Shown here one piece after another: positions 7,193 to 47,716 of a DNA stretch of 53,391 nt. Positions within the stretch are counted from its first letter, which is position 1. Each line of letters opens with the position of its first letter. Origin of the DNA: Parcubacteria group bacterium (GTDB taxonomy: Bacteria > Patescibacteriota > JABMPQ01); contig JABMPQ010000038.1 of the NCBI GenBank assembly GCA_013202585.1, forward strand, positions 1-53,391, read 5' to 3'. The notes under the pieces were generated by a model. The model searched no databases, had not been told where the DNA came from, and saw nothing but the letters and a program-made list of their open reading frames with translations. The position numbers were made by a program, and so were the translations under genes.

Positions 7193-7207
7193 GTTTATTA
7201 TTGTAAT

Positions 7208-7240: not shown

Positions 7241-7265
7241 AGTTGACGCTCTCCTATATTTTAGA

Positions 7266-7322: not shown

Positions 7323-7344
7323 TGGAATACAATAAATTAATAGC

Positions 7345-7677: not shown

Positions 7678-7712
7678 AGGTAGCAAAATGCGGATAATTA
7701 ACAATAAGAAAT

Positions 7713-7856
7713 ATGACTGTACATATAAGTTCTCAAGTTGGTGCTGAGAAAGTAGTCAAAGAAATACAAAAGCAACAAAAATGGCAAATATTACCAGGTA
7801 TCGCTATCCTCGTGGCGATAACTAGTATAATAGTCAGTATTATTCTATCCTGGTAA
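7713..7856 (+). CDS. possible 47-aa single-TM protein (below the ORF-track cutoff)
   Basis: ATG 7713 to TAA 7854..7856 with a C-terminal hydrophobic helix ILPGIAILVAITSIIVSIILSW. No other support. Confidence 0.3.
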   Translation: MTVHISSQVGAEKVVKEIQKQQKWQILPGIAILVAITSIIVSIILSW

Positions 7857-7928
7857 GGCTTGGTCTGGGCTGATGGCTCAACCATACCAGACGCTTGGAA
7901 CATAGTCTTCCGGAAAAAAGAAAAATAA

Positions 7929-8549
7929 ATGGCAATCACGCCCACCGATCAAGCAGAAGAAAAACTCCATCAACAAGGCTACAAAAATATCGCTGGTATC
8001 GACGAAGCTGGTTGTGGCTGCTGGGCCGGTCCGCTCGTCTGCGGAGTGGTTATTTTATCGCCCGGTTTTACTAATTCGGATATAAAAGACTCCAAACTCC
8101 TCACTAGCCAGAAAAGAGAAGAATTATATGCTATAATACAAGCTGAAGTCACCGCTTGGAGTGCTGGACAAGCTTCGCCGACAGAAATAGACACTCTGGG
8201 ACTCACCAAGGCCAAAAGCAAGGCAGTCGAGCGAGCCTTAGATAGCTTGTCTCTGACGCCAGATTATCTGCTTTGTGATGGTAATATAGAAACAGGCAAC
8301 AAAATCCCCGCGACCAATCACATAAAAGGCGACCAGAATATATTATCCATCGCCTGTGCTTCCATTATCGCTAAAGTTACCCGTGATCGGATCATCACTG
8401 AGCTCGGCCAACAATATCCGCAATATAATTTTGCTCAACATAAGGGTTACGGCACCAAAGAACACCAAGAAGCTTTGCAAAAACATGGAGTTTGCGAAAT
8501 CCATCGCCAGTCGTACAAGCCGATCGCAGCCATCTTAAATAACAAATAA
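7929..8549 (+). CDS. rnhB: ribonuclease HII
   Basis: IAGIDEAGCGCWAGPLV active-site motif, with length and C-terminal HR.S region typical of RNase HII. Confidence 0.9.
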   Translation: MAITPTDQAEEKLHQQGYKNIAGIDEAGCGCWAGPLVCGVVILSPGFTNSDIKDSKLLTSQKREELYAIIQAEVTAWSAGQASPTEIDTLGLTKAKSKAVERALDSLSLTPDYLLCDGNIETGNKIPATNHIKGDQNILSIACASIIAKVTRDRIITELGQQYPQYNFAQHKGYGTKEHQEALQKHGVCEIHRQSYKPIAAILNNK

Positions 8550-10844: not shown

Positions 10845-12362
10845 ATGCTAAAACAAAAACAAAATCAATTGAAGAGAATCTGTGCTTATTTAACGGCAAT
10901 TGTCCTGATTGCCTGGCCTTTTGGCTCATCTGCTGGTACTACAGCGGATAGTTTTGTTTATCCCCTAAAAAGCTATGTACTTACTTCTGATTTTGGCGAC
11001 GATCGCGGGGGCATCTACCACTTAGGTGAAGATGCCGCTGGGGCAGCTGGTACGGCCGTCTATTCTATTGGAAATGGCTACATTAAACATATTGGCGAAC
11101 ATACTAGATTTGGTACTGTTGTTCTAATTGAACATACTATCACTGGTAGAGGCAAAGTTGTTTCTCTCTATGGTCATTTACGTTCTCCCGATATAAAAGT
11201 AGCGGAAAAGCAATTTGTCAGCAAAGGACAATTAATCGGCTATTTAGGAACCACTGGGGAAAACGGTGGCTGGGGCGAACATTTACACTTTGGTATTCAC
11301 AAGGGTGCTTATGTAGATGTTGATGAGCGATGGATTTATTGGGGTCTAAACCGTTCAATCGCCGAGATGGAAAACTGGTACGATCCATCTGATTTTATTA
11401 ATGGTTACGATCCCGTTAGTTACGATCCCGATGACTTAGGTAAAATTGTTACTAGCGCTGGTTCAGGTGGCAGCGCTCACGTTAGAGTATTTGGTTCCAC
11501 TGGCCAAGCTGTTAAAGGAACGGACTTCTTCGCCTTCGGTGATGAGTCCCCAGGTGGAGCTGATATAGCTGTGGGTGATATCGACCATGATGGTGTCCAG
11601 GAGATTGTAGTCGGAGCTGGTCCGGGCAACAAACCATATGTTAAAATATTCGATAAAAATACGCAAGAGCTAGAAAAAACTTTTCTGGCTTACGGAGATG
11701 ATTTCCGGGGTGGCGTACGAGTAGCCATCGGCAATATTAACGGTGGCGAATATCAAGAAATTATTACTGGAGCTGGTCCAGGTGGGGGCGCCCAAGCTCG
11801 TGTTTTTAGTCATAATGGCAGCGTTATTCTCCCTAAGCTCTTCCCTTTTGGCGAAAATCAGCGCTCGGGGTTAGATGTGGCGGCTGGTGATACCAATGGT
11901 GATGGAATTGACGAAATTATCGTGGGTGCTGGTCCTGGCGGAGAACCAAAAGTGAGAATTTACAATGGTAATGGTCGACTAGCGAGTACCGAAATAACTG
12001 CTTTTGCCACTAACTTCCGCGGTGGAATACGCGTAGCCGCCGGTGATATTGATGGTGATGAGGTGGATGAAATTATTGTTGGGGCAGGTCAGGGCGGTGG
12101 GCCGCACGTACGTGTTTTCGAGCCTAACGGTCGACCCCGACCGATTAATATTTTCCCTTTTCACTCTAGCTTTCGGGGCGGAGTTGATGTCGCTTCCTAT
12201 GATCACAATGAAGATGGTAAAGATGATATCGTTGTTTCCCAAACCTCAGGCGGTCAAGCTTGGGTGAAAGTTGTAAAATACAATAACGAGCAGACAATCT
12301 TGGCCGAATTTAACGCTTACGCCGACTTTCAGGGTGGAGCAAATGTGACAGCGGTTAGGTAG
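10845..12362 (+). CDS. secreted M23 metallopeptidase fused to FG-GAP/VCBS-type beta-propeller repeats
   Basis: Signal peptide; M23 motifs HLGEDAA and GEHLHFGIH; about 6 repeats of the type GD.DGDG..EI(I/V)VGAGPGGGP.VR(V/I)F. Confidence 0.85.
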   Translation: MLKQKQNQLKRICAYLTAIVLIAWPFGSSAGTTADSFVYPLKSYVLTSDFGDDRGGIYHLGEDAAGAAGTAVYSIGNGYIKHIGEHTRFGTVVLIEHTITGRGKVVSLYGHLRSPDIKVAEKQFVSKGQLIGYLGTTGENGGWGEHLHFGIHKGAYVDVDERWIYWGLNRSIAEMENWYDPSDFINGYDPVSYDPDDLGKIVTSAGSGGSAHVRVFGSTGQAVKGTDFFAFGDESPGGADIAVGDIDHDGVQEIVVGAGPGNKPYVKIFDKNTQELEKTFLAYGDDFRGGVRVAIGNINGGEYQEIITGAGPGGGAQARVFSHNGSVILPKLFPFGENQRSGLDVAAGDTNGDGIDEIIVGAGPGGEPKVRIYNGNGRLASTEITAFATNFRGGIRVAAGDIDGDEVDEIIVGAGQGGGPHVRVFEPNGRPRPINIFPFHSSFRGGVDVASYDHNEDGKDDIVVSQTSGGQAWVKVVKYNNEQTILAEFNAYADFQGGANVTAVR

Positions 12363-30412: not shown

Positions 30413-31603
30413 CTATTCCCAAGCCACCAAATCGACCGAATATAAATTCAAATCAAGGAAATTGATAAAATAGAGTTTGGTTTCGTCTGCGCTAAGAAAC
30501 ATCTCCTTGACGCCAATGTCAGGATTCTCAGCAACCACACTAACCAGCTGCTCATCGTCACCACTGGCTAAGTCTAACCGCCAGATACTTTCCAAAGTCA
30601 TATAATTAAGATTGCCCTCGCTTTCTTCCAAATCAACTAGTTCGCCATAGGTGTAATAAATTGACTTATCCTCTGATCCCCATAGCGCCTGCTCTATGTA
30701 GGCATTCCCCAAATTGATGTCTTGACGATTGTCACCATTGTTATCAATTATAAAAAGCTGCGGCTGACTGTCGTCGCCGTAAGTCTCGCAAAGTAATTTT
30801 TGACCAGTGGGAGAAATCAAAACGGCTGTTATGCCGCTAATTACCTGCTTGACTTTCTGTTCGCTGAAATCGTAACGGTAGAGGGCTCTAGCTTCGTTGT
30901 CTTCATAAAAATAGTATAAGTTATTGTCGGCATAGCCTACAAACTCCACCTCGGCCAACTCCGACGCTGAATCTAAAGTCACCAAATTCTCCCAATCAGA
31001 GCCATTGGCGTTGGCTCGCGAAATATAGTTTGTTTCTAGGTCTTCATCGAAATAATGGTAAGCAATCTTATTGTTGTCTAGCCAGGTAATATCAACATAT
31101 TTTTCACTCAGAATTAACGACTCTCGGGTATTGAAATCAAGCAATATTTTATTATGCGGAGCCAGCCGACTAAAAATAGCTTTTTGTTGCTCTGATTCTG
31201 TTGTTTCCTCTTCGCCCTTGCCATCATAAACAACAGCTGCTCGACCATCCAGTGACCAACGAACATCCAAAATATCAGTAAGCTCTTGGAAAGGCAGTAG
31301 AGATGTTCTCTTGCCATCGATCAAATCGAATTGATACAAATCGTTTGTATCCAGAGATTGATAGTAAAATGCTTGCTCGGCGGGAATAAACTTAGTTTGA
31401 GTGACAGCTTCATTTATTTCCCGCACAATACTAATCGATTCACTAGCCACCAGACCCTCTATTTTCGTTTGTTCTTCGACATTTGCCATCTTAATCGCTT
31501 GACGGGGCAGCCACCAATAATTAATTATTAAAAACGCTGTGAAAATAATCACGTTAGCAACAACGATAGCGATAAATAATTTTTTCTTGGTAGTTGACTC
31601 CAT
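30413..31603 (-). CDS. N-terminally anchored beta-propeller protein (TolB/PD40-like repeats), hypothetical
   Basis: N-terminal TM (LFIAIVVANVIIFTAFLIINYWW), then repeated strands of the type LYxxDLxxGxxxxL (DLYQFDLIDGKRTSL, ALYRYDFSEQKVKQV, LFIIDNNGDNRQDI, NLYSVDL). Confidence 0.65.
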   Translation of the reverse strand: MESTTKKKLFIAIVVANVIIFTAFLIINYWWLPRQAIKMANVEEQTKIEGLVASESISIVREINEAVTQTKFIPAEQAFYYQSLDTNDLYQFDLIDGKRTSLLPFQELTDILDVRWSLDGRAAVVYDGKGEEETTESEQQKAIFSRLAPHNKILLDFNTRESLILSEKYVDITWLDNNKIAYHYFDEDLETNYISRANANGSDWENLVTLDSASELAEVEFVGYADNNLYYFYEDNEARALYRYDFSEQKVKQVISGITAVLISPTGQKLLCETYGDDSQPQLFIIDNNGDNRQDINLGNAYIEQALWGSEDKSIYYTYGELVDLEESEGNLNYMTLESIWRLDLASGDDEQLVSVVAENPDIGVKEMFLSADETKLYFINFLDLNLYSVDLVAWE

Positions 31604-31606
31604 AGT

Positions 31607-33502
31607 TTATTTCATTTTAGGGGTCTCAGTTTTGCCGCCCGATTCCTCGCAATATTTCCGTTGAAATTTAGCTGCCTTGTATATATATTTAATTGATCCT
31701 GAATGACACCAAGATGGTTTAGTAGTAGAGGAAGTGCAATTTTTCGCGCCAGAGTTATAGGCTCCAGCTGCCACTGATAAATGATTGCCACAACTTTTTA
31801 GCGTCCTTTTGAGAAAATAAATACCCATATCAACGGCGTCTTCAATATTATTATCAAACCACTTCTTGCATACTGTTGGATACTTTTCACAGACAGAGCG
31901 GCCCGGTTTGATCGTGCAACAGTTCGTATTAATCGTAGACCTTTTGTAGCTACCACAATAGGTTTTTGCTGTGTCGGGATTATATTTTCCAGAAAACTTA
32001 AGTGGCTCTTTTGTACAGATAGCGGGAACAGCCTTGCCGGAAGGTGGCTTCCAAACTCTAAAAATATAAGACGCCGTACTCGGTTGAAATTGCATAATAC
32101 CATAAGCACCCGTTACCGATTCAACGTTATAGTCTTTTCCTAGGCCAGTCTCCACCAGCATAATGGCCTTTACGTAAGTAGAATCCAGTCCTTGTCGATT
32201 AGCGGCAGCAATGATTGCCCCGTCCCACTTGTGCTTTGGCACTAACTCCTTATCACACTTCTTAATATCCGGAACTGGCACTGGACAAGCACCCACTGTC
32301 TGAAAACCGGCCGTACAACACCATTTGTCGTTCAAACCCAAAACATCATCATATTTCCCATTGATACAAGAAGTTCCACTACCACACTTAGCTTCTTTGC
32401 TTTCGCAATCGGACTGACTAGAATATGATTCAAGATAATCACAGACATTAATGGGAGTACTATCCGATCCGCCGCCAGTCACCATCTTGAGCACAGGAAT
32501 TTCAATTTTACACTCCAGCAAATACGGATTCAACACCATAAACCCAACATACGCCGTCATAGCTATAAATAAGCCAGTTAAGGCGCCACCGATCAAGTCC
32601 TTGGCCTTAGTCAGTTTGGCCGAATCACCAGCTGACGCTAGCCACACCACACCACCCAAAATGATAACTAGCATGGCTAACCCACCAGCAATTTTAATGG
32701 CAAAATCAAATATTTTCTTCCAGTAATCGCAAACATCTTTAACTTCACCAAAAAAGCCGGAAGTAAAATTAGTTGGGACTGATTCAGGAGTACCGAAAGT
32801 AACTGAATCACCAGCGTCTTTAGCACTAATCACCGGACAAGCGTCAGCCGGATGAGGGGTACTTTTTGTACCTGCTGGTAAGATATCAACAGCTGACTTG
32901 ACCGCTTTGGCGATAATACCATAGCCCGTACCGGTAAGATGTAAACCATCTTTACCAGTATTGGCTGCATACCCTGGCTTTTTCGGATCTTCGAGGATAG
33001 AGTAGGCGTCTACAACTTTACTGGCTCCGACACTACCCAATTTGCTATTTACATCTTTAGTTTTTTGTTTGATTTTGTCAGTGGATTTAGAATTCCCGCC
33101 CGAAGGAGAAACATTAACCACAATGACATTACCAGCCCCGGCACTCTTGGCCTTACTAACCATGCTTTTGACACTGCTGACAATGTTATCAGTGCCGACA
33201 CTACTATAAATATCATTAATTCCTGCCCAGATAACCACAGTATGAAATTCGCCGCCGCCACACTTTAAAAACCCATCAAATTTACCATTCAAATTTTTTG
33301 CCTGCCACCCACCATAGACCTGAGCAGTATAGGAATTACTCTTGTCGCTACTTCTCAACACTGGGCTATATCCCACCGACAAAGAATCACCTACCAATAA
33401 AACCTTTTTACTAGCTGTATCCGCCGGACTAGCAAAAGCCAGTAGCCCCAAAGCCACTGCGGTGAAAACAACAAATTTAAAATATTTTTTGGGAGTAAAC
33501 AT
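31607..33502 (-). CDS. multidomain exported protein: SGNH/GDSL hydrolase + VirB2/TrbC-like two-TM pilin module + Cys-rich region + lytic transglycosylase (SLT, VirB1-like)
   Basis: SGNH blocks LLVGDSLSVGY, GINDIY, DGLHLT. Pilin-like hairpin IAGGLAMLVIILGGVVWLASAGDSAKLTKAKDLIGGALTGLFIAMTAYVGFMVLNPYLLE. SLT motif MLVETG...GAYGIMQFQPSTA. Start set to MFTPKK (33502). Confidence 0.75.
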   Translation of the reverse strand: MFTPKKYFKFVVFTAVALGLLAFASPADTASKKVLLVGDSLSVGYSPVLRSSDKSNSYTAQVYGGWQAKNLNGKFDGFLKCGGGEFHTVVIWAGINDIYSSVGTDNIVSSVKSMVSKAKSAGAGNVIVVNVSPSGGNSKSTDKIKQKTKDVNSKLGSVGASKVVDAYSILEDPKKPGYAANTGKDGLHLTGTGYGIIAKAVKSAVDILPAGTKSTPHPADACPVISAKDAGDSVTFGTPESVPTNFTSGFFGEVKDVCDYWKKIFDFAIKIAGGLAMLVIILGGVVWLASAGDSAKLTKAKDLIGGALTGLFIAMTAYVGFMVLNPYLLECKIEIPVLKMVTGGGSDSTPINVCDYLESYSSQSDCESKEAKCGSGTSCINGKYDDVLGLNDKWCCTAGFQTVGACPVPVPDIKKCDKELVPKHKWDGAIIAAANRQGLDSTYVKAIMLVETGLGKDYNVESVTGAYGIMQFQPSTASYIFRVWKPPSGKAVPAICTKEPLKFSGKYNPDTAKTYCGSYKRSTINTNCCTIKPGRSVCEKYPTVCKKWFDNNIEDAVDMGIYFLKRTLKSCGNHLSVAAGAYNSGAKNCTSSTTKPSWCHSGSIKYIYKAAKFQRKYCEESGGKTETPKMK

Positions 33503-33589
33503 AGTAATCGCTAAACAAGGCGACCTAAGGAGGCTGTTACCAGACACCTCAAGCCGCCTTGCAGGATAAACTTATTATCTATTGGCTAA

Positions 33590-34909
33590 CTATTCCTTCT
33601 CCTCAATCATCCCCTGAGGAATATTCAAGGCGTATGTTTTATTATCGATACGATTTTTGAAATAGAATATCTTGCCATCACTGGAAACAGAACCTTTGTC
33701 ACTGACATCAACATCAAAAGTATCGCCGAAATAATCAGAAGCAGCTATTAGATCTATGGCCAAGGTTTCGGTGTCAATTTTATAAAAGGCATCAGTGGAA
33801 ATAAAATTCTCTTCGCGATAATCATTAGGCATAACCATATTGTTTGGCCAAAAATCTGGTACCCCACAGTAAACTGTTTTATTATCTTTAGCCCAAGCGC
33901 ATTTACTCACCAAGGTGTCAATTTCCAAATAACGCGGTGCGCTTAGACCGATTCTGTCCATGATATACAGGCCCAATTTGCGTGGGTTCTTCACATCTGA
34001 CTGGTTGAATATAACTTTGCTTTTGTCTGGCGATCGTCCATTCTTAGAATTAGCACCATACTGTTCACCTACCACAGTTCGATACGAGTCATCATCAGTC
34101 CTGACTATTGTTTGAATATTTCTTTCTTCGTAACCAGTAGCTTTTTTAGGGTCAACTACAATAGCTACTTCTTTTTCCCCAATCCAGTCTAGTTTTATAT
34201 CAGATCGGGAATAATGATAAAGTGATTGATAATTGCCGGTATCATAAGGATCAGCGACGGAAATATTGGAAATATCATTCTCCTCATCTTTGTAAATATA
34301 AGCAATCTGGCTTTGGTCAGGGGAAAGAGTGACGGACTGAAATTTCTTATCGTATTCAACAGTTTCTTGAGTTTGGAGGTCAAAAATAGCATATTCTTTG
34401 TCTTGACCGTCATTGTCTGAGAAAGCGATTACGGCCTTATCCTTATTAGGAGACCATTCGAGTTCGTAAACATTTTGAAAATTGGCAGAAGTGATCGCTT
34501 CCTGGTTGTTGCCATCGAGATCAGACATATAAAGTTCGCCCTTAGCCGGATCATAGTAGTAAAGATTATTACCATCGGGGGATAGAGTGGTGGACATGGC
34601 ATCATCCTCGATAACAGCTCTGACCGTAGCCTCGTCAATTTCGATGGGCTCTATTTCCTCACCTTCCTCGAGGGCTAACCGTCGGTCTTCTTCGATCTTG
34701 GCAATTTTTTCTTCCAAGGTCGTCCCCTTTTCTACCTCTTCCTCAGTCAACTCGAGACGCACTTTCTCTTCGGAAGTAACTTTGGCTTCTTCCGGAATCT
34801 CGTCAGCCGTTGGCTTCTTAATTAGTGAAGTATAAACAAACCAGCCAGCCACCGCTAAGACTACGACCGCGATTGAGGCAATGATAATGATTTTTGTTTT
34901 ATTAGTCAT
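33590..34909 (-). CDS. N-terminally anchored beta-propeller protein (PD40-like repeats), paralogous in architecture to 30413..31603
   Basis: TM (IIIIASIAVVVLAVAGWFVY), an acidic coiled linker, then repeats such as LSPDGNNLYYYDPAKGELYMSDLDGNNQEAIT, WSPNKDKAVIAF and LSPDQSQIAYIY. Confidence 0.7.
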   Translation of the reverse strand: MTNKTKIIIIASIAVVVLAVAGWFVYTSLIKKPTADEIPEEAKVTSEEKVRLELTEEEVEKGTTLEEKIAKIEEDRRLALEEGEEIEPIEIDEATVRAVIEDDAMSTTLSPDGNNLYYYDPAKGELYMSDLDGNNQEAITSANFQNVYELEWSPNKDKAVIAFSDNDGQDKEYAIFDLQTQETVEYDKKFQSVTLSPDQSQIAYIYKDEENDISNISVADPYDTGNYQSLYHYSRSDIKLDWIGEKEVAIVVDPKKATGYEERNIQTIVRTDDDSYRTVVGEQYGANSKNGRSPDKSKVIFNQSDVKNPRKLGLYIMDRIGLSAPRYLEIDTLVSKCAWAKDNKTVYCGVPDFWPNNMVMPNDYREENFISTDAFYKIDTETLAIDLIAASDYFGDTFDVDVSDKGSVSSDGKIFYFKNRIDNKTYALNIPQGMIEEKE

Positions 34910-34953: not shown

Positions 34954-35727
34954 CTATATTTCTTCGCAAGTTGATATATTAACGCCACCGAAACCGGCAA
35001 CCCTGTCTACTATATTAATAAGGGTAAAGCCAAACACGCCTGCTGACTTCTTACCTACATCTTTGCACTTGGTGCCTGGCGGACATTTTTGGGGGAAACT
35101 AATGCCACCATACCCTGTCTTTGTGTTACAGGCGTTACTAGTGCTTGAGTTCTGCCAGCCTGAACCATAAGCAGCTATGCCACACACATCGCCTTCTTTG
35201 GCATAGCAATACCCCTTAATACATTGGGTCTTTATAGATTCTTTACGTTTCTCATCCTTGCCCGCAGTACATTCATAAATGTAAAGATCAAAACCTTTGC
35301 ACTCACTCGCACTGGAACATTTTTTGGCATTATCACCCCACTTATCATCTGCTTCCGACGTCGCTTGTTGCATATCCGGCACTTTAATATTAAGCTCAAC
35401 TAATCGAGGATCCAAGGTTCGCAGGATAACGTACGAGCCCATCACTAGAACCAGACCAATCAGCGCTCCGGCAAACATCTCCTTGGCCTTAGTCACATGC
35501 TCTTCATTGCCAGAAGAACGCATATAATTTACTCCGGCCAACACAAGCGCACCCATCGCCACTGCTCCGACAATAGACGATCCAAATATGTAAAATGTTT
35601 TTACATACTGAGTAACATCGCTACTTTCACCAAAAAATCCAGCTGCTCCAAACACGCGCGCTGGAATTAACAACAACAGCCCCAAAAGCATCCCAGCCAA
35701 TTTGTAAAAATGTCGAAACATAGTCAC
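34954..35727 (-). CDS. VirB2/TrbC-like T4SS pilin module fused to a C-terminal Cys-rich ectodomain
   Basis: Signal peptide, then the two-TM hairpin IVGAVAMGALVLAGVNYMRSSGNEEHVTKAKEMFAGALIGLVLVMGSYVILRTLDPRLVE. It shares the pattern TKAK(E/D)..GAL.GL ... L(D/N)P.L.E with the module in ORF 31607..33502. The C-terminal 130 aa have 12 Cys. Confidence 0.65.
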   Translation of the reverse strand: MTMFRHFYKLAGMLLGLLLLIPARVFGAAGFFGESSDVTQYVKTFYIFGSSIVGAVAMGALVLAGVNYMRSSGNEEHVTKAKEMFAGALIGLVLVMGSYVILRTLDPRLVELNIKVPDMQQATSEADDKWGDNAKKCSSASECKGFDLYIYECTAGKDEKRKESIKTQCIKGYCYAKEGDVCGIAAYGSGWQNSSTSNACNTKTGYGGISFPQKCPPGTKCKDVGKKSAGVFGFTLINIVDRVAGFGGVNISTCEEI

Positions 35728-35730
35728 TAA

Positions 35731-38700
35731 TTAATCTCTACCTCGACTTCCCACCACACCAGAAGCGAAAACTAACACCAAAGCAGCAATACTTAAAGTA
35801 ATAAATACGTTAAAGACATTGCGTACACTATCGGGAACAAAGCTTTCAATAAAGCTCTTAGCTCCCGACACTCCGCCAGCTGTGCTATCCTCTGTCACCT
35901 TTATTGTTACAGTTGTTTCGCTGCCCTCTAGCTTTTGTCCCTTATCATCCAGGCTATCAATTTGCACTTTTATCACTTCGGATGTTTGTTTCTTGTCACC
36001 CGCGGTAAACTCCATGATGCCAATCCGGTTAGTCGTAGTTGAGGTATCCACCTTTTCACCGTTCCGGTACCAAGTATAAACAAATTTTTGTTTGTTGACT
36101 GGCAGAAAATACTGGGCGGTAGCCTTTACTTCCACCTTCGTCCCCCGCTTGGCGCTATAAGTGACGGTGCCATCTTTTTGAGTCGGCCCTTTAGAGAATC
36201 CTTTGGCTGGTTTTAATTCAGCGTAAGCAGCTAATACTTTAATACCTTCTCGTTTACGAGCAACTAGCTTATTACTCCCATCGTAAACTTTAACTTCAAC
36301 ATAATGACTGTCCTTCCCGCGTGGATCGGAAGGGCTAGTACCTTTGTCGTTGACTGAGGCAACCGCACCAGCAGTTGGTTCTACTTGAATTGATTTAAAA
36401 TCTTTACCTTTGCCACTTTTGTCTTTCTGTTCCACACCATCAACTGACCAACGATAAGTTAAGTTATCAGCAAACCTTTTCTGCTTAACTTCCTTGCTAT
36501 CGTTGAGAGACGTTTTAGCTCCCGTCTCCACCCCACAAGCACCTTCATCATAACCATCAAGCTCGGCAGTATACTTTACCTTATCGTACTGACGGACACC
36601 TCCTTTATCGCTAGTATTTACGTCTTTCTTAGATTTATCATCGGCAGGATCACATTTGCCGAGTTTTTGGGGATTATCATTACAGACAACTTCTTTCATA
36701 AAACTCAGATCCATCAAAATTGGGATCTCCGCTGTAGCCATCGTAGTCTGCGCTGTTGTCGGATCGGTGACTTCCAGCATCACTTTAGCCCCCACACAAG
36801 GCTGACTTACTCCTTGGCTGGCGGTAAACTCCAGAGAACTTTTACCAAACCCAGATTGCTTGCCAAGCGCCTCGGCCATTGCAAAGTAGGTTGGGTTACA
36901 AGGACAAGCCTCACTGGAATACTGACTGCCAGTCGCGCTTGGTACTGGATAATCATTAAGATACCACTGATAGAAGAGAGAGTCAGGATCAACGTTTTCT
37001 AGGTTACCAACTGCTGCTTTAACTAATACTTTATTATCAGCAATGGTAACATTGCTCGGCGTAACGGAAAGCATTACTTGCAGTGACAGCCCGCCGCCTT
37101 CTTTCATTAGAGTTTTCGAATCCGCCCGAACAAAATTAACTTCGCCCTTATAAAGAGATCGAGTGCTTTTACCATAAGAACGAACTACTACGGAATAATC
37201 CTCGCCCGTTTTAATTTTATTGAGTTTCAGACTAACTGTGTTCTGCTCCATGCCATAGAAATCAGCCGCATCTGAAACGCCATCGTTGTCAGTATCAGCT
37301 ATCGTGGGATCAGTGCCAGCCACAAATTCAAAGTAATTACTGCCATCACCGCCCACTTTATTTTTAGAACGTTCCACACCTGGTCCAATCCCTAAAGTTT
37401 TCATATCTATGAAGGTGGTTCTAGACAACTGCTGATAATACACCGAGAAGTCGATAGTATCATCATCCCAATCGTCCCCCGCCCGCACCGAATCCAAGAA
37501 ATCTCTTAATTCTTGTGGGTGGAGGGTACCGTCAGTAGTATTACAGCAAGGAGGGAAATAAACTTCTGGTTCCGATTCATCCTCATCACTCTCACCCCTG
37601 TCAATTATCTTGCCAGCCAACTCACCAAAATACTTCATTTCCCACAGATCCGGCATACCATCATCATCCCTATCTTTGTATCCTACTGTCCCAGTTGCTT
37701 CCACCATTTTACCTTCTTTCGGATCATTAGCTTCAGTGTCGTCAAGTTTGGTAAAGACACGCGATAGGTTTATTCTACTGCCACGACTCCCTTTATTTAT
37801 TCCATCTCTGTTGCCCTGCCAATCTTCTTCCTTGCTAGCCCATTTACCTCTATATATCAGCAAAAGAGCCTGACCAAAGGCCTGCAGGTTGTCATGGTCG
37901 CAGGGCTCGCCAGCGCCACTATAGGAATACTGTGTTATATTGAACGAATCTTCGTAATCCTTCACACAAGCATCATACGAATAATTCTGTGGTATACGCG
38001 GAGGGTTGCCCCCAAAATTGCCCTGCCAGTATTTTACAAACTCTCCGGCATCATAAGTTACTTGAGGGAAACTCTTGTATCTCACTTTTACTTTATTTAC
38101 TCCATTCTCTTTTTTTCTTTTATTCCAGAGAACGTCTATACTTTCGGAAGAAGAAGCTATCTTGCCTATCTCTTCATAGGAAAAGGACTCATAAATAACA
38201 TATAGATCCTGATCAGTCGGGCAGCTAGCCGCTATTTTATTATTAGCCTTACTCCACTCGACCGCTTCGTATCCCAAATTGGCCATCTTTTTTAGATAAG
38301 TGCTAGTGTAGCTCTTATCTAGACAACGATACGAACCAACACTATCAGTAGTAAAAGCAGTTTTTTCTTTACCTAGAGGGTCAGGCAAATTGTCATCCTT
38401 CTCGGCCATTTGGTAATTAGAGCCCCGGGTAGGCATTCTATCAGCTATTATGCGAGGGCTGCTGAATGAAATGTTGTTCACACCGATCATCGCCGCAATT
38501 CCCTCTTGAACCAACATGGTATAATACTGATCATGCGAATAAACAAAACCATACTTATCAAAACGACTACCGTATGTATCCGTCACCATCTGACTTCTAA
38601 TTAGGCCAGAATCATGCCAACCCTGCGAACCTATCGGCCAGGGCGGGGATTGACAAAGGCCCTCGCCACCATAAAGCCGTCCCCATTGGTTGGTTATCTT

Positions 38701-39162
38701 GGGAACATATTTAGCGTTAAATACTTTCTTTTGCTTACGAAAACTCTTGCCTTTGCTATCTTTCTCAATTGTTTCTACATAAACCTCCTCGACATCTTTA
38801 CTGTTTTTCTTCCTAACTATTTCCGTCCCATCGGGATACTCTATACCCTTCCAATCGACTACTGCCATCGTAATTTTATCAGATGACCCAGCATAGAAAG
38901 TATTAAGCGGTTTGCCGTCAATACACCAATTATCAAAAACACCACTACCTAAGAAATTTTCGTGCTCAGCCATCATAGAAATTTTGGCACCGGGGTGAAC
39001 GGTTTTGGGTATCGTTTTTATTTTCACTGTCGGATAAGCTGGCTTTGCAACTTCATCAGCTGCCTGGGTAATACCAAACACGGCCATTGTCCCGACAGCC
39101 AATCCGATAGCTAAACAGCTAGCCAACACTACATATTTGTATTTTTTCAAGAAATCTCGCAT
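35731..39162 (-). CDS. 1143-aa secreted surface protein with a C-terminal membrane anchor (adhesin-like), function unknown
   Basis: N-terminal signal/TM, C-terminal TM (VFNVFITLSIAALVLVFASGVVG). Internal acidic Ca-binding-like motifs (DRDDDGMPDLWEMKYFG, DTDNDGVSDAADFYG) and a beta-rich C-terminal half. Confidence 0.75.
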   Translation of the reverse strand: MRDFLKKYKYVVLASCLAIGLAVGTMAVFGITQAADEVAKPAYPTVKIKTIPKTVHPGAKISMMAEHENFLGSGVFDNWCIDGKPLNTFYAGSSDKITMAVVDWKGIEYPDGTEIVRKKNSKDVEEVYVETIEKDSKGKSFRKQKKVFNAKYVPKITNQWGRLYGGEGLCQSPPWPIGSQGWHDSGLIRSQMVTDTYGSRFDKYGFVYSHDQYYTMLVQEGIAAMIGVNNISFSSPRIIADRMPTRGSNYQMAEKDDNLPDPLGKEKTAFTTDSVGSYRCLDKSYTSTYLKKMANLGYEAVEWSKANNKIAASCPTDQDLYVIYESFSYEEIGKIASSSESIDVLWNKRKKENGVNKVKVRYKSFPQVTYDAGEFVKYWQGNFGGNPPRIPQNYSYDACVKDYEDSFNITQYSYSGAGEPCDHDNLQAFGQALLLIYRGKWASKEEDWQGNRDGINKGSRGSRINLSRVFTKLDDTEANDPKEGKMVEATGTVGYKDRDDDGMPDLWEMKYFGELAGKIIDRGESDEDESEPEVYFPPCCNTTDGTLHPQELRDFLDSVRAGDDWDDDTIDFSVYYQQLSRTTFIDMKTLGIGPGVERSKNKVGGDGSNYFEFVAGTDPTIADTDNDGVSDAADFYGMEQNTVSLKLNKIKTGEDYSVVVRSYGKSTRSLYKGEVNFVRADSKTLMKEGGGLSLQVMLSVTPSNVTIADNKVLVKAAVGNLENVDPDSLFYQWYLNDYPVPSATGSQYSSEACPCNPTYFAMAEALGKQSGFGKSSLEFTASQGVSQPCVGAKVMLEVTDPTTAQTTMATAEIPILMDLSFMKEVVCNDNPQKLGKCDPADDKSKKDVNTSDKGGVRQYDKVKYTAELDGYDEGACGVETGAKTSLNDSKEVKQKRFADNLTYRWSVDGVEQKDKSGKGKDFKSIQVEPTAGAVASVNDKGTSPSDPRGKDSHYVEVKVYDGSNKLVARKREGIKVLAAYAELKPAKGFSKGPTQKDGTVTYSAKRGTKVEVKATAQYFLPVNKQKFVYTWYRNGEKVDTSTTTNRIGIMEFTAGDKKQTSEVIKVQIDSLDDKGQKLEGSETTVTIKVTEDSTAGGVSGAKSFIESFVPDSVRNVFNVFITLSIAALVLVFASGVVGSRGRD

Positions 39163-40682: not shown

Positions 40683-42647
40683 CTAAGCGTCTGCGGACAT
40701 TTCTTCTGGTTCTGCCGGCTCCCCACCTGGTTCTGCCGATCCTTCTTTTTGCTTTTGGGAGTATTCTTGCTTAGCTTTTTCAATTTCCAACATTTGACGT
40801 GGGTCAGTGGTAATAACTTGATCCTCTGAATAAGAAGCTACTACTTTCATCGCCACATGCTTTGGTCCGGCAAAAAATATCCCTTCCCCAACGTCAGATT
40901 CCAGTAATAAATACTTTTCTTGTTCGGTTAGGTGGAAAGTTTTGGTCAAAACATCGATGCTGGCTGGTGACTGCTTCATTAGTATCTGCATCGCCGAATT
41001 AGTCACAATCGCTTTGCCATAATCGGAGGTCAGAAAGTCATTAACATCCTGGCTGATAGTCGTTAGGCCAACGTAATATTTACGACCTCTCTTGGCCAAG
41101 CTAAACATGAAGCGAGCCGAGTCCTCATATTGCATCATCCACCAAGCTTCATCAACCACGATCATTCGTTTTTTCAGCTGCGCCCGGACAATATTCCAAA
41201 TATAATTAAGCACCACGTACATCGCGATCGGTCGTAATTCATCTTCCAAGTCACGGATACTGACCACTACCAAGCCCGTATCTAGATCAACATTAGTCAG
41301 TTCATTAAATAGGCCAGCAAAAGTTCCCTCGGTATATTTTCTAACTCGGGGTATCAGGTCTTCTGTCCCCGACATTCCTTCTAAAATATCCTGAAAGTCT
41401 TTCATTGTCGGCGGGGTTATCTGTGATAAATCGCTATCGCCAGTAATATCACGTTTAGCATATGTCTCATTCAAAGCTTGATCAATTAAAGCGTCCTCTT
41501 CTTTCGTCATCCGCCCTAACATCAAACGCAATAAACCTTTTAAATTGATGACGGCGGAACGAATAATATCCTTGGTAGTCATATCAGATACGGCTGGTGG
41601 TAAATCAAAAGGATTAATCCGATACTTAGAATCAAGTGATACTCGCAGAAAAGTGCCACCGACCGCTTCAGCTAAATATTTATACTCATTTTCCGGATCA
41701 ACCACAATGACATCGGTGCCAAACATCAAGCTACGCAGAATTTCCAGTTTGACCGCATAACTTTTGCCCGCTCCCGAAGTAGCAAAAACAACTGAATTAG
41801 CATTTGGTAAAGAAAAGCGATCAAACAAGATCAGGCTATTATTATGGCGGTTAATACCATACAAAATTCCCTCGTTAGAAGTTAGTTCGGAAGAAACAAA
41901 GGGATAAGAAGTAGACAACGGACTAGAATTCATACTATTAATGATTTTGAGTTCGTCCTTGCCATAAGGTAAAGTAGAATTGAAACCTTGTTCCATTTGG
42001 AAAACAGCTTTCTTAGAATAAATTAGGCGTTGGCCCAACATACTTTCAATCGTTTTTGTCTTTTCTTCTAAGTCTTTTTTAGTACCAGCGTAAAGAGTGA
42101 TGTAAAGAGCAAAATAGAAAAATCTTTCCGTCCCTTGCACTAACTTGTCACGTAATTCTTCTACATCCTGTATAGCAGTTTGCAACATGGGATCACGTAC
42201 TTGGCCTTTTTCTGCCTGCGCCGAGATGGTTGATTGAATCTGACCAGTCTTGCCTTTCAACGTTTTCAATATCTGTTGCGTTTCTACCGGTGTGATGAAC
42301 ATAGCCACGTCTAGTTCTTCGTTAAGGTTGACTATCGGAGCAAACCAGCCCGTGGTGACATAGCGTGGGTAGGTGAAGACAAATAACGTCCGCACAAATT
42401 GCTGGTTAAGGCGAATGTGGTCCGCTTCGATTTTCATGGCTGCCGGGGCAATAATATCCCGAACGGTTACTACCCCTTTCCGGAAAATTTCCTCCGTTTT
42501 CAGGAGTTGCTTCTTTTCCGCCTCGGTCAAATTAGAGAAACTCTTTTTACCAATAGGAACACTAGCAGCGCTGTCATCAACTGGCGGAGGAGCTGCTTCT
42601 ACGGTTGGTTCATTATTTTCCGAAATATTCTGATTATCCATATCCAA
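40683..42647 (-). CDS. VirB4/TrbE/PrgJ-family type IV secretion ATPase
   Basis: VirB4 N-domain pattern (IAPAAMKIEADHIRLNQQFVRTLFVFTYPRYVTTGWF), Walker A FATSGAGKSY, Walker B MIVVDEAWWMM, C-terminal ISQ...D motif region. Confidence 0.9.
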   Translation of the reverse strand: MDMDNQNISENNEPTVEAAPPPVDDSAASVPIGKKSFSNLTEAEKKQLLKTEEIFRKGVVTVRDIIAPAAMKIEADHIRLNQQFVRTLFVFTYPRYVTTGWFAPIVNLNEELDVAMFITPVETQQILKTLKGKTGQIQSTISAQAEKGQVRDPMLQTAIQDVEELRDKLVQGTERFFYFALYITLYAGTKKDLEEKTKTIESMLGQRLIYSKKAVFQMEQGFNSTLPYGKDELKIINSMNSSPLSTSYPFVSSELTSNEGILYGINRHNNSLILFDRFSLPNANSVVFATSGAGKSYAVKLEILRSLMFGTDVIVVDPENEYKYLAEAVGGTFLRVSLDSKYRINPFDLPPAVSDMTTKDIIRSAVINLKGLLRLMLGRMTKEEDALIDQALNETYAKRDITGDSDLSQITPPTMKDFQDILEGMSGTEDLIPRVRKYTEGTFAGLFNELTNVDLDTGLVVVSIRDLEDELRPIAMYVVLNYIWNIVRAQLKKRMIVVDEAWWMMQYEDSARFMFSLAKRGRKYYVGLTTISQDVNDFLTSDYGKAIVTNSAMQILMKQSPASIDVLTKTFHLTEQEKYLLLESDVGEGIFFAGPKHVAMKVVASYSEDQVITTDPRQMLEIEKAKQEYSQKQKEGSAEPGGEPAEPEEMSADA

Positions 42648-43490: not shown

Positions 43491-43910
43491 TTACGCTCTG
43501 TCTAACGTGTTGGAAATATCCTGCAATTTGCTCTTCACTAATCGTCTACCTCCTGGTAAAACCATTGTCTCTATCTCCTTTTGAACTGTGACTTTTTTTT
43601 CTTTGGAAAGGGTTTTGATTTTATCGAGGGCTGGTTCCCGAAACCAAACTCGCAAGCGCGGGTTGGTGTGGAAATGAATAAAGGAAACTAGAAAAATCTG
43701 AAAAGGTCGGCCGTTAATTTTGACAAAGGAGAAAGTAACTACTATCACCACCACTATCAGAGCCAGAATAACAAACAGGCTCAGATCAGCTAGAGACCAA
43801 GCAATCAGGAGGGTTACTCCCCCGGCCACCATATATAAAAACTGGCGCACTGTCAGCGGGCCAATCACCTTATCCTCAACTTCAATGAATTGGGGGACAG
43901 CAAATTGCAT
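43491..43910 (-). CDS. PrgI-family (VirB3-like) two-TM T4SS protein
   Basis: MQFAVPQFIEVEDKVIGPLTVRQFLYMVAGG followed by two TM helices, which is the characteristic PrgI family signature. ATG 43910 is preferred over the GTG 43940 extension. Confidence 0.7.
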   Translation of the reverse strand: MQFAVPQFIEVEDKVIGPLTVRQFLYMVAGGVTLLIAWSLADLSLFVILALIVVVIVVTFSFVKINGRPFQIFLVSFIHFHTNPRLRVWFREPALDKIKTLSKEKKVTVQKEIETMVLPGGRRLVKSKLQDISNTLDRA

Positions 43911-43928
43911 GGGAGGGGTATTAGGTTG

Positions 43929-43967
43929 CCCGCCCGCCACGGCTTCGCCGTAGGCGAGTCGGGCGGG
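43929..43967 (-). promoter_or_regulatory. very GC-rich nested hairpin between ORF 43974..45191 and the PrgI-like gene
   Basis: cccgcccg (43929..43936) / cgggcggg (43960..43967) enclosing tcgcc-gta-ggcga (43945..43957). Confidence 0.4.
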
Positions 43968-45232: not shown

Positions 45233-47716
45233 CTACGGTGTAGCACCGGCAGCAAAGCCGGCAGCCATATTCGTAACATGATCTCCAGCCCATTCAATAA
45301 CATTCCTACCAATGCCCCATTTGCCATCTGTCGGAGTCGGTGGAACCACAGCACCAGTATGATCAGTGACCTTTCCAGTGCCTAGCCTTTCCATTTCGCA
45401 AGCCTTGCCGTACATAACTGCCATACGCTCCACATGACTATTATTACTTTCCGTCTGAGTAGCAACCTTTCTGCTTTTCTCCTGCTCCTCTTTGATTAAT
45501 CCTTGTCTCTTCTTTCCTTTACTGCCTTTTATAGCTTTTCCTAAATCTTCTAATTCTCTAGTTGATTTCGCTAGAGCATCTGCCAACTTTTTTACAAAAG
45601 CCGGTTTTATTTGTTCAACTGCTCTCTTTTTTATTGTATCTAAATTCCGCTCGCCTTTTGAATTTATGGCCATATAGGCTTTCAACGGATCACCTCGACC
45701 ATATTCACCCACTCGAGCCGCTTTTTCTCTATCTTCATGCTCAAGCAAATACCAGCCAGCTTGGTGAACATCTTTGAGCTTGCCAGCCGATTCTCTAACA
45801 ATAGCGTTACTATGCATGTCACCCATATAGGCCCGATTACCCATTTTGGCTTTTTTATCTTCGACAATCTCTTCTTGTTCCGCATCCGTCGTATATCTCC
45901 ATTTGCCCTTGTCATTGGTAACCATGCCTGCCGTTCCGAAATGTCCAGCCGCCAAGGTAATCTCTTGTAAATCAGCTACTGTCTGACAAGCCAAAGAACC
46001 TTCTCCTAATTCCAGCTGAAGAGCTTTTTTTAGTAATTGAGGATCAAATTCGGGTTTGCTATCCTTTGTTACTAAATCAGTCCCGTCCTCTTTTTTTATT
46101 CCCATTTTCATGAAAGCTTCTCTATGCTTGTCAAAAAATGCCGGCAGACTTAACAAGTCATTAAGATTATTGGTACCCGCTAATTTACGCAAGTGAGCTC
46201 CTTTTTCTATTTCATTGGCTGCCCCCATATACCCATCTACCAGAGCGGGACTGGACTCAGTGCCAATCTCATTCTCTTTCTCTACCTCTAAGCTTCTTCT
46301 CGCCCTTCTAGCATAATTGGTTTTTTCGTGTCCCAGGCTCATCACATTATTTAGCATATCATGCATCTGACCGCCCGGTTGCGTGTAGGCATCGCTTTCT
46401 AATCTAGCCCTTCTCGTCCGCCAAGCTTCTGGTATCATAGTTGCTGTAGCCGCACCACGGGCAGCCAGTCCAGCTCCTTGAGCAAGAAGATGTAGAGGAA
46501 GGGTAGAAACCGCCCCCAACGCCTTTCCTACTATCCCTTTACCCATCAACCCTTTATTCAATGCGCTCACGCCCTGGGCCATACGTCCCTTGCCCGCTCG
46601 CAAGGCTGTTCTCCGCGCAAAATTACCGCCCAACATCGCCGCTCCTAAACCAACCTTGGTCGCCAGACCCATTCCTCGCCTCGCCAATCCCATCGTCATC
46701 CCAGCTGCCATCGGTGAAAGCGCCTTGGCCATCAGAATCGCCAGATACAAGAAAGTAATCATCACCGCCATCCGGTAAAAACCGTCGGCGGTTAGTAGGC
46801 TGATATTGCCCCGCAACTCTCCCGTCGTTTTCACTTTCATTAAAATACCCTTGCTAGTTGTATCCTCAGTAATGTGATAGGCGACCATACAAGACAAATA
46901 AACCAGAAAACCAGCTACTGGCCCATAAAAGACATACTTAAAAAACTCGTCCCACCACCGCTTAGCGTATTGCTGGGTAGCTGGCAAAATATTAAGAACA
47001 AAGGCGGCTGGTGATAATACCACTAGTACCATCAATACAACATTCCTCATTATAATCAAAGTCGACAGCAAACTAAAAGCCATCATTATCAAAAACATAA
47101 CGAAAATTGTGGCTAAGATAGCAATACTAGCCTCCGTTACTACGTTACTTCCAGGCTCTAATGAACTCCAAGCTGAGCCCGCTATCTTGTGTGGCATCGT
47201 GTTAAAAAGAGCCAAAGAAAACGTGTCCGAATAGTTATAGCCCTTAAAATTAATAAACGTCATCATCAGCACATTGGAAAAATCAATAAAAACCCCCGCG
47301 ATAGTCTTACTAAAATTCACCAACAGAGCAGCATAAATTAACTTCGGCAGCAGTGCTTTATATTGATAAGCCTCGATACGCAGAATAGTGGCAAAAGCAA
47401 TTACCAACAGAGATATAACAAAGAACATATTGAGTACATCGCGAGTGATTCCCCAACCAGCAATAACCACCGGATCATTTATAATATCCGGCGCATTGTG
47501 ATAAACGTGATCAAATAATTTACCAGACAGAACAAAAAAGAAAGTCTCGATTTCTAAAATAAAAGCGAAAATATAGCCAAATAATAAGAAAGTATAATTT
47601 TTAAGTGTCGTCCAGCCATTAGCAAAGGACACTCTAGGTAACAAAGTACCAAACACCACTAGAGCGTAGAATGCGATTTGAAAAAAGATTTTTTTGTTCT
47701 TTGTTTTATTGGCCAC
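45233..47716 (-). CDS. VirB6/TrbL-like polytopic membrane protein with a hydrophilic C-terminal extension of about 450 aa
   Basis: Signal-like N-terminus, then at least 7 hydrophobic helices over about 370 aa, then a Gly/Ala-rich segment and a long charged domain. GTG start. Assigned from topology and operon context. Confidence 0.55.
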   Translation of the reverse strand: MANKTKNKKIFFQIAFYALVVFGTLLPRVSFANGWTTLKNYTFLLFGYIFAFILEIETFFFVLSGKLFDHVYHNAPDIINDPVVIAGWGITRDVLNMFFVISLLVIAFATILRIEAYQYKALLPKLIYAALLVNFSKTIAGVFIDFSNVLMMTFINFKGYNYSDTFSLALFNTMPHKIAGSAWSSLEPGSNVVTEASIAILATIFVMFLIMMAFSLLSTLIIMRNVVLMVLVVLSPAAFVLNILPATQQYAKRWWDEFFKYVFYGPVAGFLVYLSCMVAYHITEDTTSKGILMKVKTTGELRGNISLLTADGFYRMAVMITFLYLAILMAKALSPMAAGMTMGLARRGMGLATKVGLGAAMLGGNFARRTALRAGKGRMAQGVSALNKGLMGKGIVGKALGAVSTLPLHLLAQGAGLAARGAATATMIPEAWRTRRARLESDAYTQPGGQMHDMLNNVMSLGHEKTNYARRARRSLEVEKENEIGTESSPALVDGYMGAANEIEKGAHLRKLAGTNNLNDLLSLPAFFDKHREAFMKMGIKKEDGTDLVTKDSKPEFDPQLLKKALQLELGEGSLACQTVADLQEITLAAGHFGTAGMVTNDKGKWRYTTDAEQEEIVEDKKAKMGNRAYMGDMHSNAIVRESAGKLKDVHQAGWYLLEHEDREKAARVGEYGRGDPLKAYMAINSKGERNLDTIKKRAVEQIKPAFVKKLADALAKSTRELEDLGKAIKGSKGKKRQGLIKEEQEKSRKVATQTESNNSHVERMAVMYGKACEMERLGTGKVTDHTGAVVPPTPTDGKWGIGRNVIEWAGDHVTNMAAGFAAGATP

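Follow-up and report, generated by a model that had tools for sequence, protein, structure and literature searches.

A contig of 53,391 nucleotides (nt) from a Parcubacteria group bacterium (JABMPQ010000038.1, positions 1 to 53,391, assembly GCA_013202585.1; hereafter the window) carries on its minus strand, at 31607..33502, a gene for a protein of 631 amino acids (aa, plus a stop codon) that combines a signal peptide, an SGNH esterase domain, a VirB2-like membrane hairpin, a Cys-rich module and a lytic transglycosylase (LT) domain of the SLT type. The window is a chromosomal Patescibacteria (Parcubacteria-type) stretch from freshwater metagenomes with about 43% G+C, and its nearest public genome is a Parcubacteria metagenome-assembled genome (MAG). 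Housekeeping genes flank the region of interest: rpoB/rpoC, ruvA, a FemAB-family gene, uvrA, radA, ksgA, tsaD and genes for glycolytic enzymes. The target gene itself lies in a single long minus-strand operon, running from about 50029 down to 30413, that also encodes components of an apparatus resembling a type IV secretion system (T4SS). We consider it rather probable that the protein is the cell-wall-opening component, the equivalent of VirB1, of this chromosomal Patescibacteria apparatus.

The open reading frame (ORF) is uninterrupted, covering 31607..33547 when read from a GTG codon and 31607..33502 when read from the first ATG; the ATG start is favoured because orthologs begin MFVPKKYF and MSVVPKKYL. 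A first-pass annotation made from the DNA sequence had described these domains as one polypeptide, naming a frameshift or an assembly join between separate genes as one finding that would overturn the description. None was found. In contig-level data from four metagenome runs, one 22.5-kb contig at a depth of 19 and fragments from three other freshwater runs match 31400..33700 with zero differences, indels or joints. Orthologs from independent assemblies, 82% and 70% identical, contain the same four Pfam families; the gene order around the 82% ortholog is identical to that of the window, and one ortholog in NCBI carries the automatic name ‘transglycosylase SLT domain-containing protein’. With the intact frame, the exact match of contigs from four runs and the recurrence of the architecture at 82%, 70% and about 30% identity, the single polypeptide is borne out. 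A frameshift or a chimeric assembly joining separate genes is ruled out for practical purposes, at the level of contigs, by the matches from four runs and by independent orthologs at 82%, 70% and 22-30% identity.

All of the predicted parts of the protein (SGNH, hairpin, Cys-rich and SLT) were detected, the domain search with hidden Markov models (HMMs) being positive for both SGNH and SLT, and the Pfam matches all exceed their gathering scores. The motifs quoted in the first-pass annotation are likewise present: GDSLS at residues 38-42, GINDIY at 94-99, DGLHLT at 185-190, CDYLES...KWCC at 354-396, VETG at 450-453, GIMQF at 468-472 and AYNSG at 581-585. NCBIfam returned nothing useful for the protein. 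The signal peptide occupies residues 1-24 (MFTPKKYFKFVVFTAVALGLLAFA, followed by SPAD; 33431..33502, minus strand) and overlaps a hydrophobic segment at residues 6-29; P26 and A27 are invariant in the family, and we infer cleavage after AFA. Besides this signal-like segment, hydropathy analysis identifies membrane helices at residues 263-295 and 303-329. Cysteines are concentrated in the second part of the protein, with 21 of the 22 located past residue 220 and none in the helices or the loop of the hairpin. An AlphaFold2 (AF2) model built from an 8-sequence alignment has a mean predicted local distance difference test (pLDDT) score of 61.5 with disordered linkers; its full-length predicted template-modelling score is 0.37, so low that how the domains sit relative to one another carries no meaning and is given no interpretation.

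The SGNH/GDSL esterase domain comprises residues 32-206 (32885..33409, minus strand; Pfam PF13472 and PF00657), with Lipase_GDSL_2 matching residues 37-195 at 39.4 bits against a cutoff of 32.9. It has the blocks that define the SGNH superfamily: block I, GDSLS, with S40; block II with G65; block III, GINDIY, with N96; and block V, DGLH, with D185 and H188. G38, D39, S40, G65, G94, N96 and H188 are invariant across homologs that are only 22-30% identical (alignment A1), and relatives with a permuted domain order also retain the Ser, Asn and His. The domain is modelled by AF2 with a pLDDT of 70-89. Foldseek relates it to SGNH esterases with a probability of 1.0 and with target-normalised template-modelling scores of 0.60-0.79 to most of the listed SGNH structures, the nearest being Bacteroides acylhydrolases, the acetylxylan esterase Axe2 and sialate O-acetylesterase. 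Sequence searches of the PDB agree, with matches to 3p94, 4ppy and 4iyj.

Next comes the hairpin (residues 257-331; 32510..32734, minus strand), which is assigned to the T4SS_pilin family (PF18895). AF2 places its helices at residues 257-289 and 294-324, and the short loop between them, SAGDSAKLTKAKD, is predicted to be cytoplasmic. As the first-pass annotation had noticed, the hairpin is homologous to the product of a nearby pilin-like ORF, 34954..35727 (37% identity over 120 aa, E 9e-22, BLASTP). It is the best-conserved part of the query in an exhaustive phmmer search, and its relatives in some cases cross-match TrbC (PF04956). Stand-alone members of the family are typically 95-171 aa long; the target, at 631 aa, is thus not a small-subunit pilin.

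Two cysteines flank the hairpin, C258 (32714..32716) before helix 1 and C331 (32510..32512) after helix 2, and they covary almost perfectly: among 151 aligned hairpins, both are present in 34, both are absent from 115 and only one is present in 2, although shared ancestry inflates this count. The covariation suggests that, in one large T4SS_pilin subgroup, a C258-C331 disulfide may staple the outer ends of the hairpin. Such a bond, on the oxidising extracytoplasmic side, would support an out-in-out topology. Some VirB2/TrbC pilins undergo head-to-tail cyclisation, and it is tempting to speculate that the Cys staple mimics this arrangement. Hairpins also occur in multiples: P0022, P0025, P0079, P0023 and P0027 contain two to four T4SS_pilin hairpins in tandem, in single polypeptides of 500-890 aa, as if the pilin gene arrays of Patescibacteria had been fused.

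The hairpin is followed by a Cys-rich module (residues 332-420; 32243..32509, minus strand) with nine cysteines, a KWCC motif and no assigned fold. This module accompanies the hairpin as a cassette in relatives with other cargo, namely P0004 and the proteins encoded at two of the syntenic loci described below (L008 and L010). One relative, P0006, is 50% identical to the target over residues 240-418, which take in the hairpin and the Cys-rich region.

The C-terminal part of the protein (residues 421-631; 31610..32242, minus strand) is a family-1 LT domain of glycoside hydrolase family 23 (GH23; Pfam PF01464). The SLT match covers residues 429-479 and a second stretch, at 46.2 bits against a cutoff of 21.3, and the motifs are those of GH23 family 1: the catalytic E451 within VETG, GIMQF and AYNSG. 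E451, G465, Q471 and G585 are invariant across the 22-30% identical homologs, and the AF2 pLDDT of the core is 76-90. When a profile of the SLT segment was compared with the PDB, the closest solved structures were Neisseria LtgA, MltC and Escherichia coli Slt70, with E-values of 1e-13 to 1e-12. Goose-type lysozymes, which also belong to GH23, are among the weaker matches of this profile, and the anhydro-product chemistry of an LT is thus a putative assignment. Within the domain, a second Cys-rich segment of about 70 aa (residues 483-552; 31847..32056, minus strand; alignment A6) is inserted between the GxMQ..P.T motif and the helix preceding AYNxG. Its pattern, SC..GYC..CC..C..Y..CK.W, is conserved in the subfamily, whereas in LtgA the same two blocks are only about 14 residues apart. 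The insert is poorly modelled, with low AF2 pLDDT at residues 501-538.

The operon provides a real T4SS context, as had been proposed at first pass. Its minus-strand genes include a PrgI/VirB3-like small membrane protein (43491..43940; PF12666, 45.1 bits), a VirB4-type ATPase (40683..42647; Pfam TraG P-loop, AAA_10 and CagE_TrbE_VirB), an 827-aa polytopic protein, a 1143-aa surface protein, the pilin-like protein (34954..35727; PF18895, 32.3 bits), the target and two propeller-type proteins. The layout matches that of published Patescibacteria T4SS loci, including ksgA beside virB4 (PMC12102498). The target shares one operon with PrgI, VirB4 and a pilin-like gene, and its slot is conserved in eight other loci, which makes it a T4SS-associated wall hydrolase by gene context. 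Neither a relaxase nor VirD4 is present in the window, and none of the RNA runs contains the target locus.

To compare this position across genomes, we used the operon proteins of the window and purpose-built HMMs on eight loci from other Patescibacteria assemblies (L001, L002, L003/L004, L005, L006 and L008-L010), labelled Parcubacteria, Doudnabacteria, ‘Saccharibacteria’ or Patescibacteria group. The order virB4, a 240-aa protein, a large surface protein, (a pilin-like protein), a propeller protein, the slot, a second propeller protein and radA is kept, and it persists although RadA identity drops to 54-60%. In all eight loci the slot is filled by a hairpin protein, and what varies is the cargo of the hairpin. 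SGNH-hairpin-SLT is found in the window, L001, L002 and L003/L004; hairpin-SLT-SGNH in L005 and L006; an NlpC/P60-like domain in L008; a divergent SLT-like domain in L009; and a C39-like domain (Peptidase_C39_2) in L010. L005 has a second such gene, hairpin-SLT-Amidase_2, beyond a further propeller paralog. Two of these calls are indirect: that for L008 rests on a phmmer match (E 8.8e-19) to a region that Pfam names NLPC_P60/CHAP, its own Pfam matches being sub-threshold, and that for L009 on a homologous protein (E 9.6e-43) in which the matched stretch is called SLT by Pfam.

Cargo does not track relatedness. L008 is the second-closest genome (RadA 81% and hairpin 65% identical), yet its cargo is NlpC/P60-like; the distant L002 (RadA 58%) retains the SGNH-hairpin-SLT trio. 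Two further observations concern copy number at this position. Doudnabacteria L005 repeats the pattern as propeller, hairpin hydrolase, propeller, hairpin hydrolase, propeller and radA, with propeller genes at 448..1719, 3736..4986 and 6832..8043. The MAG JAQVVF01 has two contigs, each with an SGNH-hairpin-SLT gene in the same local context (9968..11044 in L003 and 672..2471 in L004), which means that the operon is present twice or that the bin mixes strains.

The gene context bears on the alternative that the protein serves the producer’s own growth or division as a housekeeping autolysin, with the hairpin a mere anchor and the position in a T4SS operon functionally meaningless. Family-1 LTs and Ape-type esterases do serve normal wall turnover (PMC7083599), and the window is part of the chromosome, with housekeeping genes on its flanks. 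However, the place in a virB4 operon beside a pilin-like gene is kept across lineages whose RadA proteins are only 54-60% identical, and the anchor comes from a T4SS-specific family instead of being a generic membrane helix; we regard this alternative as quite improbable.

The fusion is not confined to these loci. When 1.84 billion cluster representatives were searched exhaustively with phmmer, 6012 matched at E <= 1e-3 and 229 at E <= 1e-10. Word-indexed homolog searches found four or five proteins with the full protein or alignment A1 and only short stand-alone pilins with the hairpin profile A5, so that these word-indexed results give no unbiased frequencies of architectures. The order SGNH-hairpin-SLT is seen in the window protein (P0001), P0002 and P0003, and also in P0005, P0007, P0012, P0017, P0034, P0046 and P0070, whose identity to the target is about 22-33%. 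The permuted order hairpin-SLT-SGNH is seen in P0018, P0030, P0040 and P0111; among the best phmmer matches examined, only P0028 and P0131 combine SGNH and hairpin without a detected SLT domain. The first-pass annotation had left it to a survey of related genomes whether the fusion is conserved or split. It is conserved, occupying the same syntenic position in at least five Patescibacteria lineages and occurring in two domain orders.

A Pfam scan of the best 120 phmmer matches found the hairpin in 110. Wall hydrolases of other types among these 120 are Peptidase_C39_2 (five), NlpC/P60 (five), Amidase_2 (four) and M23, VanY, M15 and Amidase_5 (two each). The architecture that had been called unusual is indeed unlike described systems, but it is not a one-off: it is part of a broad set of hairpin-tethered wall hydrolases. 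The family was not found by tblastn in phage and plasmid collections.

These observations suggest a mechanism. The signal peptide would export the N-terminal SGNH esterase, and the hairpin would span the membrane out-in-out, so that the C-terminal Cys-rich module and the LT would also lie outside, the outer ends of the hairpin probably being stapled by the C258-C331 disulfide. The esterase would strip O-acetyl groups from the C6-OH of N-acetylmuramic acid (MurNAc), and the GH23 LT would next cut the glycan strand; a free C6-OH would be needed because the LT forms its 1,6-anhydro bond through this hydroxyl. The hairpin would hold both enzymes at the apparatus, by homology to its pilin-like partner and presumably through the same contacts as a VirB2-type subunit. 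The wall that is cut may be the cell’s own or a host’s.

There is precedent for such a division of labour. O-acetylation blocks LTs, which need a free C6-OH, and in Neisseria the esterase Ape1 and the LT LtgA form a mutually activating complex (PMC7083599). The LtgA-Ape1 pair supports the mechanism proposed here, LtgA being the closest solved relative of the target SLT domain, and the carbohydrate O-acetyl esterases among the nearest SGNH structures (Axe2, sialate O-acetylesterase and the Bacteroides acylhydrolases) also count for de-O-acetylation. In a survey of Patescibacteria T4SSs, most genomes with VirB2 homologues are without a VirB1 homologue (PMC12102498). A protein such as the target passes the PF18895 criterion and would therefore be counted as a pilin, with the hydrolase hidden. 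A hydrolase concealed in this way in a protein that scores as ‘VirB2’ would fill the missing-VirB1 gap.

Several points weigh against assignment of the target as a VirB1-equivalent that de-O-acetylates and cuts peptidoglycan. The enzyme activities of the SGNH and SLT domains are themselves predictions from motifs and folds. T4SS_pilin matches residues 261-317 at 26.7 bits, a borderline score against a cutoff of 26.6, and, compared with the PDB, profile A5 of the hairpin matches no pilin chain at E <= 10; because no solved pilin is matched, the label ‘VirB2-like’ rests on family annotation. Changes of cargo between close relatives, together with the wide range of hydrolase types borne by the hairpin, are easier to reconcile with adaptation to different target walls than with a fixed role in assembly through the cell’s own wall. 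Finally, no Ape1 chain is among the PDB sequence matches of the SGNH domain at E <= 1 or among the top 50 Foldseek matches, and the Ape1 motifs GDS(H/F) and Dx(V/T)H (PMC1199599) are replaced by GDSL and DGLH. By sequence, then, the domain falls outside the Ape1 family (carbohydrate esterase family 3, CE3), although it may work like Ape1. The earlier suggestion of a de-O-acetylating enzyme is to be qualified: peptidoglycan as the substrate is an extrapolation from the co-occurrence of SGNH with SLT and from the known block of LTs by O-acetylation.

With neither match nor motifs of Ape1, the esterase could act on a lipid or on some other acetylated glycan. The SGNH domain might accordingly have lipase or phospholipase activity, or be an esterase whose substrate is a different acetylated envelope polymer (teichoic acid, capsule or exopolysaccharide), in which case two layers of the envelope would be attacked. 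Its Pfam families are generic GDSL lipase/acylhydrolase families, and its structural neighbours include TesA/lysophospholipase L1 and platelet-activating factor acetylhydrolase besides carbohydrate esterases. However, the SGNH domain of hairpin proteins is nearly always paired with SLT and not with peptidase or amidase cargos, which points to a dependence specific to glycan strands, and its best neighbours in both sequence and fold are small SGNH proteins of the carbohydrate acetyl-esterase type. We therefore judge a lipid or another polymer to be an improbable substrate, if a more credible proposal than an autolysin.

Transfer of acetyl groups in the opposite direction can be considered in the same light: a PatB/OatA-C-type O-acetyltransferase would re-acetylate, and thereby protect, the wall around the LT cut. 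PatB (8tlb) is among the fold neighbours of the domain, but only at Foldseek rank 47. The ‘Ape2’ family is presumably the one later renamed PatB. Its DG(I/V)H motif resembles DGLH of block V (PMC1199599), although DGxH also occurs in hydrolase neighbours. All four hydrolase blocks are present in the target, including the Gly of block II and GxND of block III, and the window contains no MBOAT or AT3 partner; an acetyltransferase is very improbable, the least so favoured of the roles that we weighed for this protein. An esterase acting on peptidoglycan ahead of the LT thus remains our preferred assignment.

The variable cargo calls for a different comparison. In one alternative, the protein is an ‘evolved pilin’ effector: the hairpin would be a true VirB2-type subunit, drawn out of the membrane by VirB4 and polymerising, with or instead of the neighbouring pilin, to give a filament or stalk, so that the enzymes would be displayed against the wall of a host. 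The same slot holds different wall hydrolases (SGNH+SLT, SLT+SGNH, SLT+Amidase_2, divergent SLT-like, NlpC/P60-like and C39_2) that do not follow relatedness, and many of the best 120 hairpin proteins bear peptidoglycan hydrolase domains foreign to the target. Subunits of the VirB2/TraA type have both termini on the outside of the pilus, and fusions at either end are therefore geometrically conceivable. Near the slot, the tri-domain protein is the sole hairpin ORF over 10 kb in both directions in L002, and over the 10 kb upstream, to the contig end, in L003; T4SS pilin genes are essential in the one Patescibacteria species tested (PMC10633639; PMC12857230). Other evidence points away from a filament subunit. 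A T4SS pilus is undemonstrated in Patescibacteria; domains of 25-30 kDa on both ends of every subunit would crowd a helical filament; the linkers are short, at about 50 and about 90 residues; and the profile search that matched no solved pilin counts here as well. Gram-positive conjugative T4SSs, moreover, use varied multi-domain hydrolases on their own wall, so that variable cargo is not discriminating.

We regard this alternative as unlikely, while giving it more weight than any of the others. Equally tentative is the general form of the idea, in which the hairpin would be an adaptor for delivery or assembly and the apparatus would have a filament or stalk with some or all of its subunits bearing lineage-variable wall hydrolases. 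If it were true, these epibionts would use their essential T4SS to drill physically through the host wall by means of enzymes suited to the chemistry of the host peptidoglycan, with the SGNH-LT pair as the form adapted to walls that are O-acetylated. A membrane-held, VirB1-equivalent hydrolase acting at the apparatus is the reading that we favour over a polymerising one.

The remaining operon genes give a fuller picture of this apparatus. The pilin-like protein (34954..35727), with its signal peptide, hairpin and C-terminal domain of about 150 aa, is the sole hairpin ORF of the window besides the target in a scan with a purpose-built hairpin HMM. It is no plain pilin: the region of about 150 aa after the hairpin has ten cysteines and is without a Pfam match, and its counterparts are longer in L006 (598 aa) and L010 (378 aa). 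On either side of the target lie membrane-anchored, propeller-type proteins that are paralogs of one family by iterated HMM searches and are supported by synteny: a PD40/DPPIV_N-like protein upstream (33590..34909, minus strand), also identified by Pfam, and a paralog of about 400 aa directly downstream (30413..31603, minus strand), whose start codon is 3 nt past the stop codon of the target and which is followed by radA. These propeller proteins could be a scaffold through the wall, a partner of the hydrolase or an inhibitor of it. The downstream gene was also considered as a small immunity protein, a candidate ruled out by its length of about 400 aa, its membrane anchor and its paralogy to the upstream propeller.

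Further upstream, the 827-aa protein (45233..47716, minus strand) has at least seven segments resembling membrane helices in its first 340 residues and a large C-terminal part; it has no Pfam match and is a candidate for an extended VirB6-like channel subunit. The 1143-aa protein (35731..39162, minus strand) has hydrophobic segments at both ends, 15 cysteines and a weak match to bacterial TSP3 repeats. It is syntenic in every related locus and fast-diverging (23-73% identity), and it is possibly an adhesin or a surface component of the apparatus. Outside the T4SS operon, 10845..12362 on the plus strand encodes a separate secreted protein with Peptidase_M23 and FG-GAP repeats, a further wall-active or adhesion-type protein.

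The individual parts of the target are known, namely an SGNH esterase, a GH23 LT, a T4SS_pilin hairpin and hydrolases associated with T4SSs (PrgK and TraG, for example). The novelty lies in the use of a pilin-type hairpin as an anchor or adaptor of wall hydrolases, the presence of enzymes on both sides of it, an esterase-LT pair that survives permutation and a conserved slot with swappable cargo. Pilin-hydrolase fusions are not described in the survey of Patescibacteria T4SSs (PMC12102498), whose supplements do not mention the SLT or GDSL Pfam families, or in the Southlakia genetics paper, T4SS reviews, a Patescibacteria perspective and keyword searches, a coverage of the literature that is incomplete. 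The T4SS is essential in the only Patescibacteria species tested genetically, and its role has been described as completely unknown (PMC11665869; PMC10633639). Proteins that score as ‘VirB2’ and bear wall hydrolases, encoded at a conserved operon position, would supply the missing wall-opening activity. They offer a connection, open to testing, from the apparatus to the breakdown of a cell wall, maybe that of the host, and may explain how these ultrasmall Patescibacteria breach a cell wall at their secretion machine. The recurrent pairing of SGNH and LT in two orders is an independent argument, from genomes, for the sequence of action known in Neisseria, with the esterase before the transglycosylase, and the cargo of the hairpin could serve as a marker of the type of wall that each lineage must breach.

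Comparison with known systems places the target between several of them. CwlT of ICEBs1 is a multi-domain wall hydrolase of a Gram-positive T4SS, and others of this kind are PrgK of pCF10 and TraG of pIP501 (as cited in PMC12102498). The target resembles these three in belonging to a monoderm-type T4SS operon with VirB4 and PrgI, in being anchored in the membrane and in joining a second wall-active domain to one of the SLT or muramidase type, presumably for opening the wall. PrgK, TraG and CwlT, however, have a single N-terminal membrane helix, whereas the target has a VirB2-like hairpin with enzymes on both sides; their second domain is CHAP, NlpC/P60 or LytM, whereas that of the target is an SGNH esterase; and, unlike them, the target has a Cys-rich insert in its SLT domain and neither a relaxase nor a coupling protein nearby. 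With VirB1 of the Agrobacterium type it shares a GH23 LT encoded with T4SS genes and the catalytic Glu, GxMQ and AYNxG motifs, but VirB1 is soluble and periplasmic and lacks the pilin module and the esterase that the target has. The cooperation of an SGNH esterase with a family-1 LT, in which de-O-acetylation permits cleavage, is as in the LtgA-Ape1 pair of Neisseria (PMC7083599), and a similar cooperation is only a presumption for the target. That pair consists of two proteins that act in wall turnover in a diderm periplasm, in contrast to one polypeptide from a T4SS operon, and the target SGNH domain differs from Ape1 in sequence family and in having no CBM35 insertion.

Two further comparisons concern the hairpin. 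Pilins of the VirB2/TrbC type and the T4SS_pilin gene arrays of Patescibacteria (PMC12102498; PMC10633639) have the same signal peptide, two hydrophobic helices, short polar loop, PF18895 match and proximity to virB4. Typical T4SS_pilin members, however, are the stand-alone proteins of 95-171 aa described above, whereas the 631-aa target has globular enzymes at both termini; polymerisation is undemonstrated for any member. In type VI secretion (T6SS), evolved VgrG proteins are apparatus components fused to variable wall-hydrolase cargo. The Xanthomonas/Stenotrophomonas T4SS effectors (X-Tfe) have a conserved delivery domain. With evolved VgrG and X-Tfe the target shares the design of a constant apparatus-related module combined with lineage-variable, peptidoglycan-degrading domains. 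It is unlike VgrG and X-Tfe in that no small immunity gene is evident beside it and its delivery to another cell would be hypothetical. Its constant module is also of another kind: a pilin-like membrane hairpin, in place of the spike protein of VgrG or the C-terminal secretion signal of X-Tfe.

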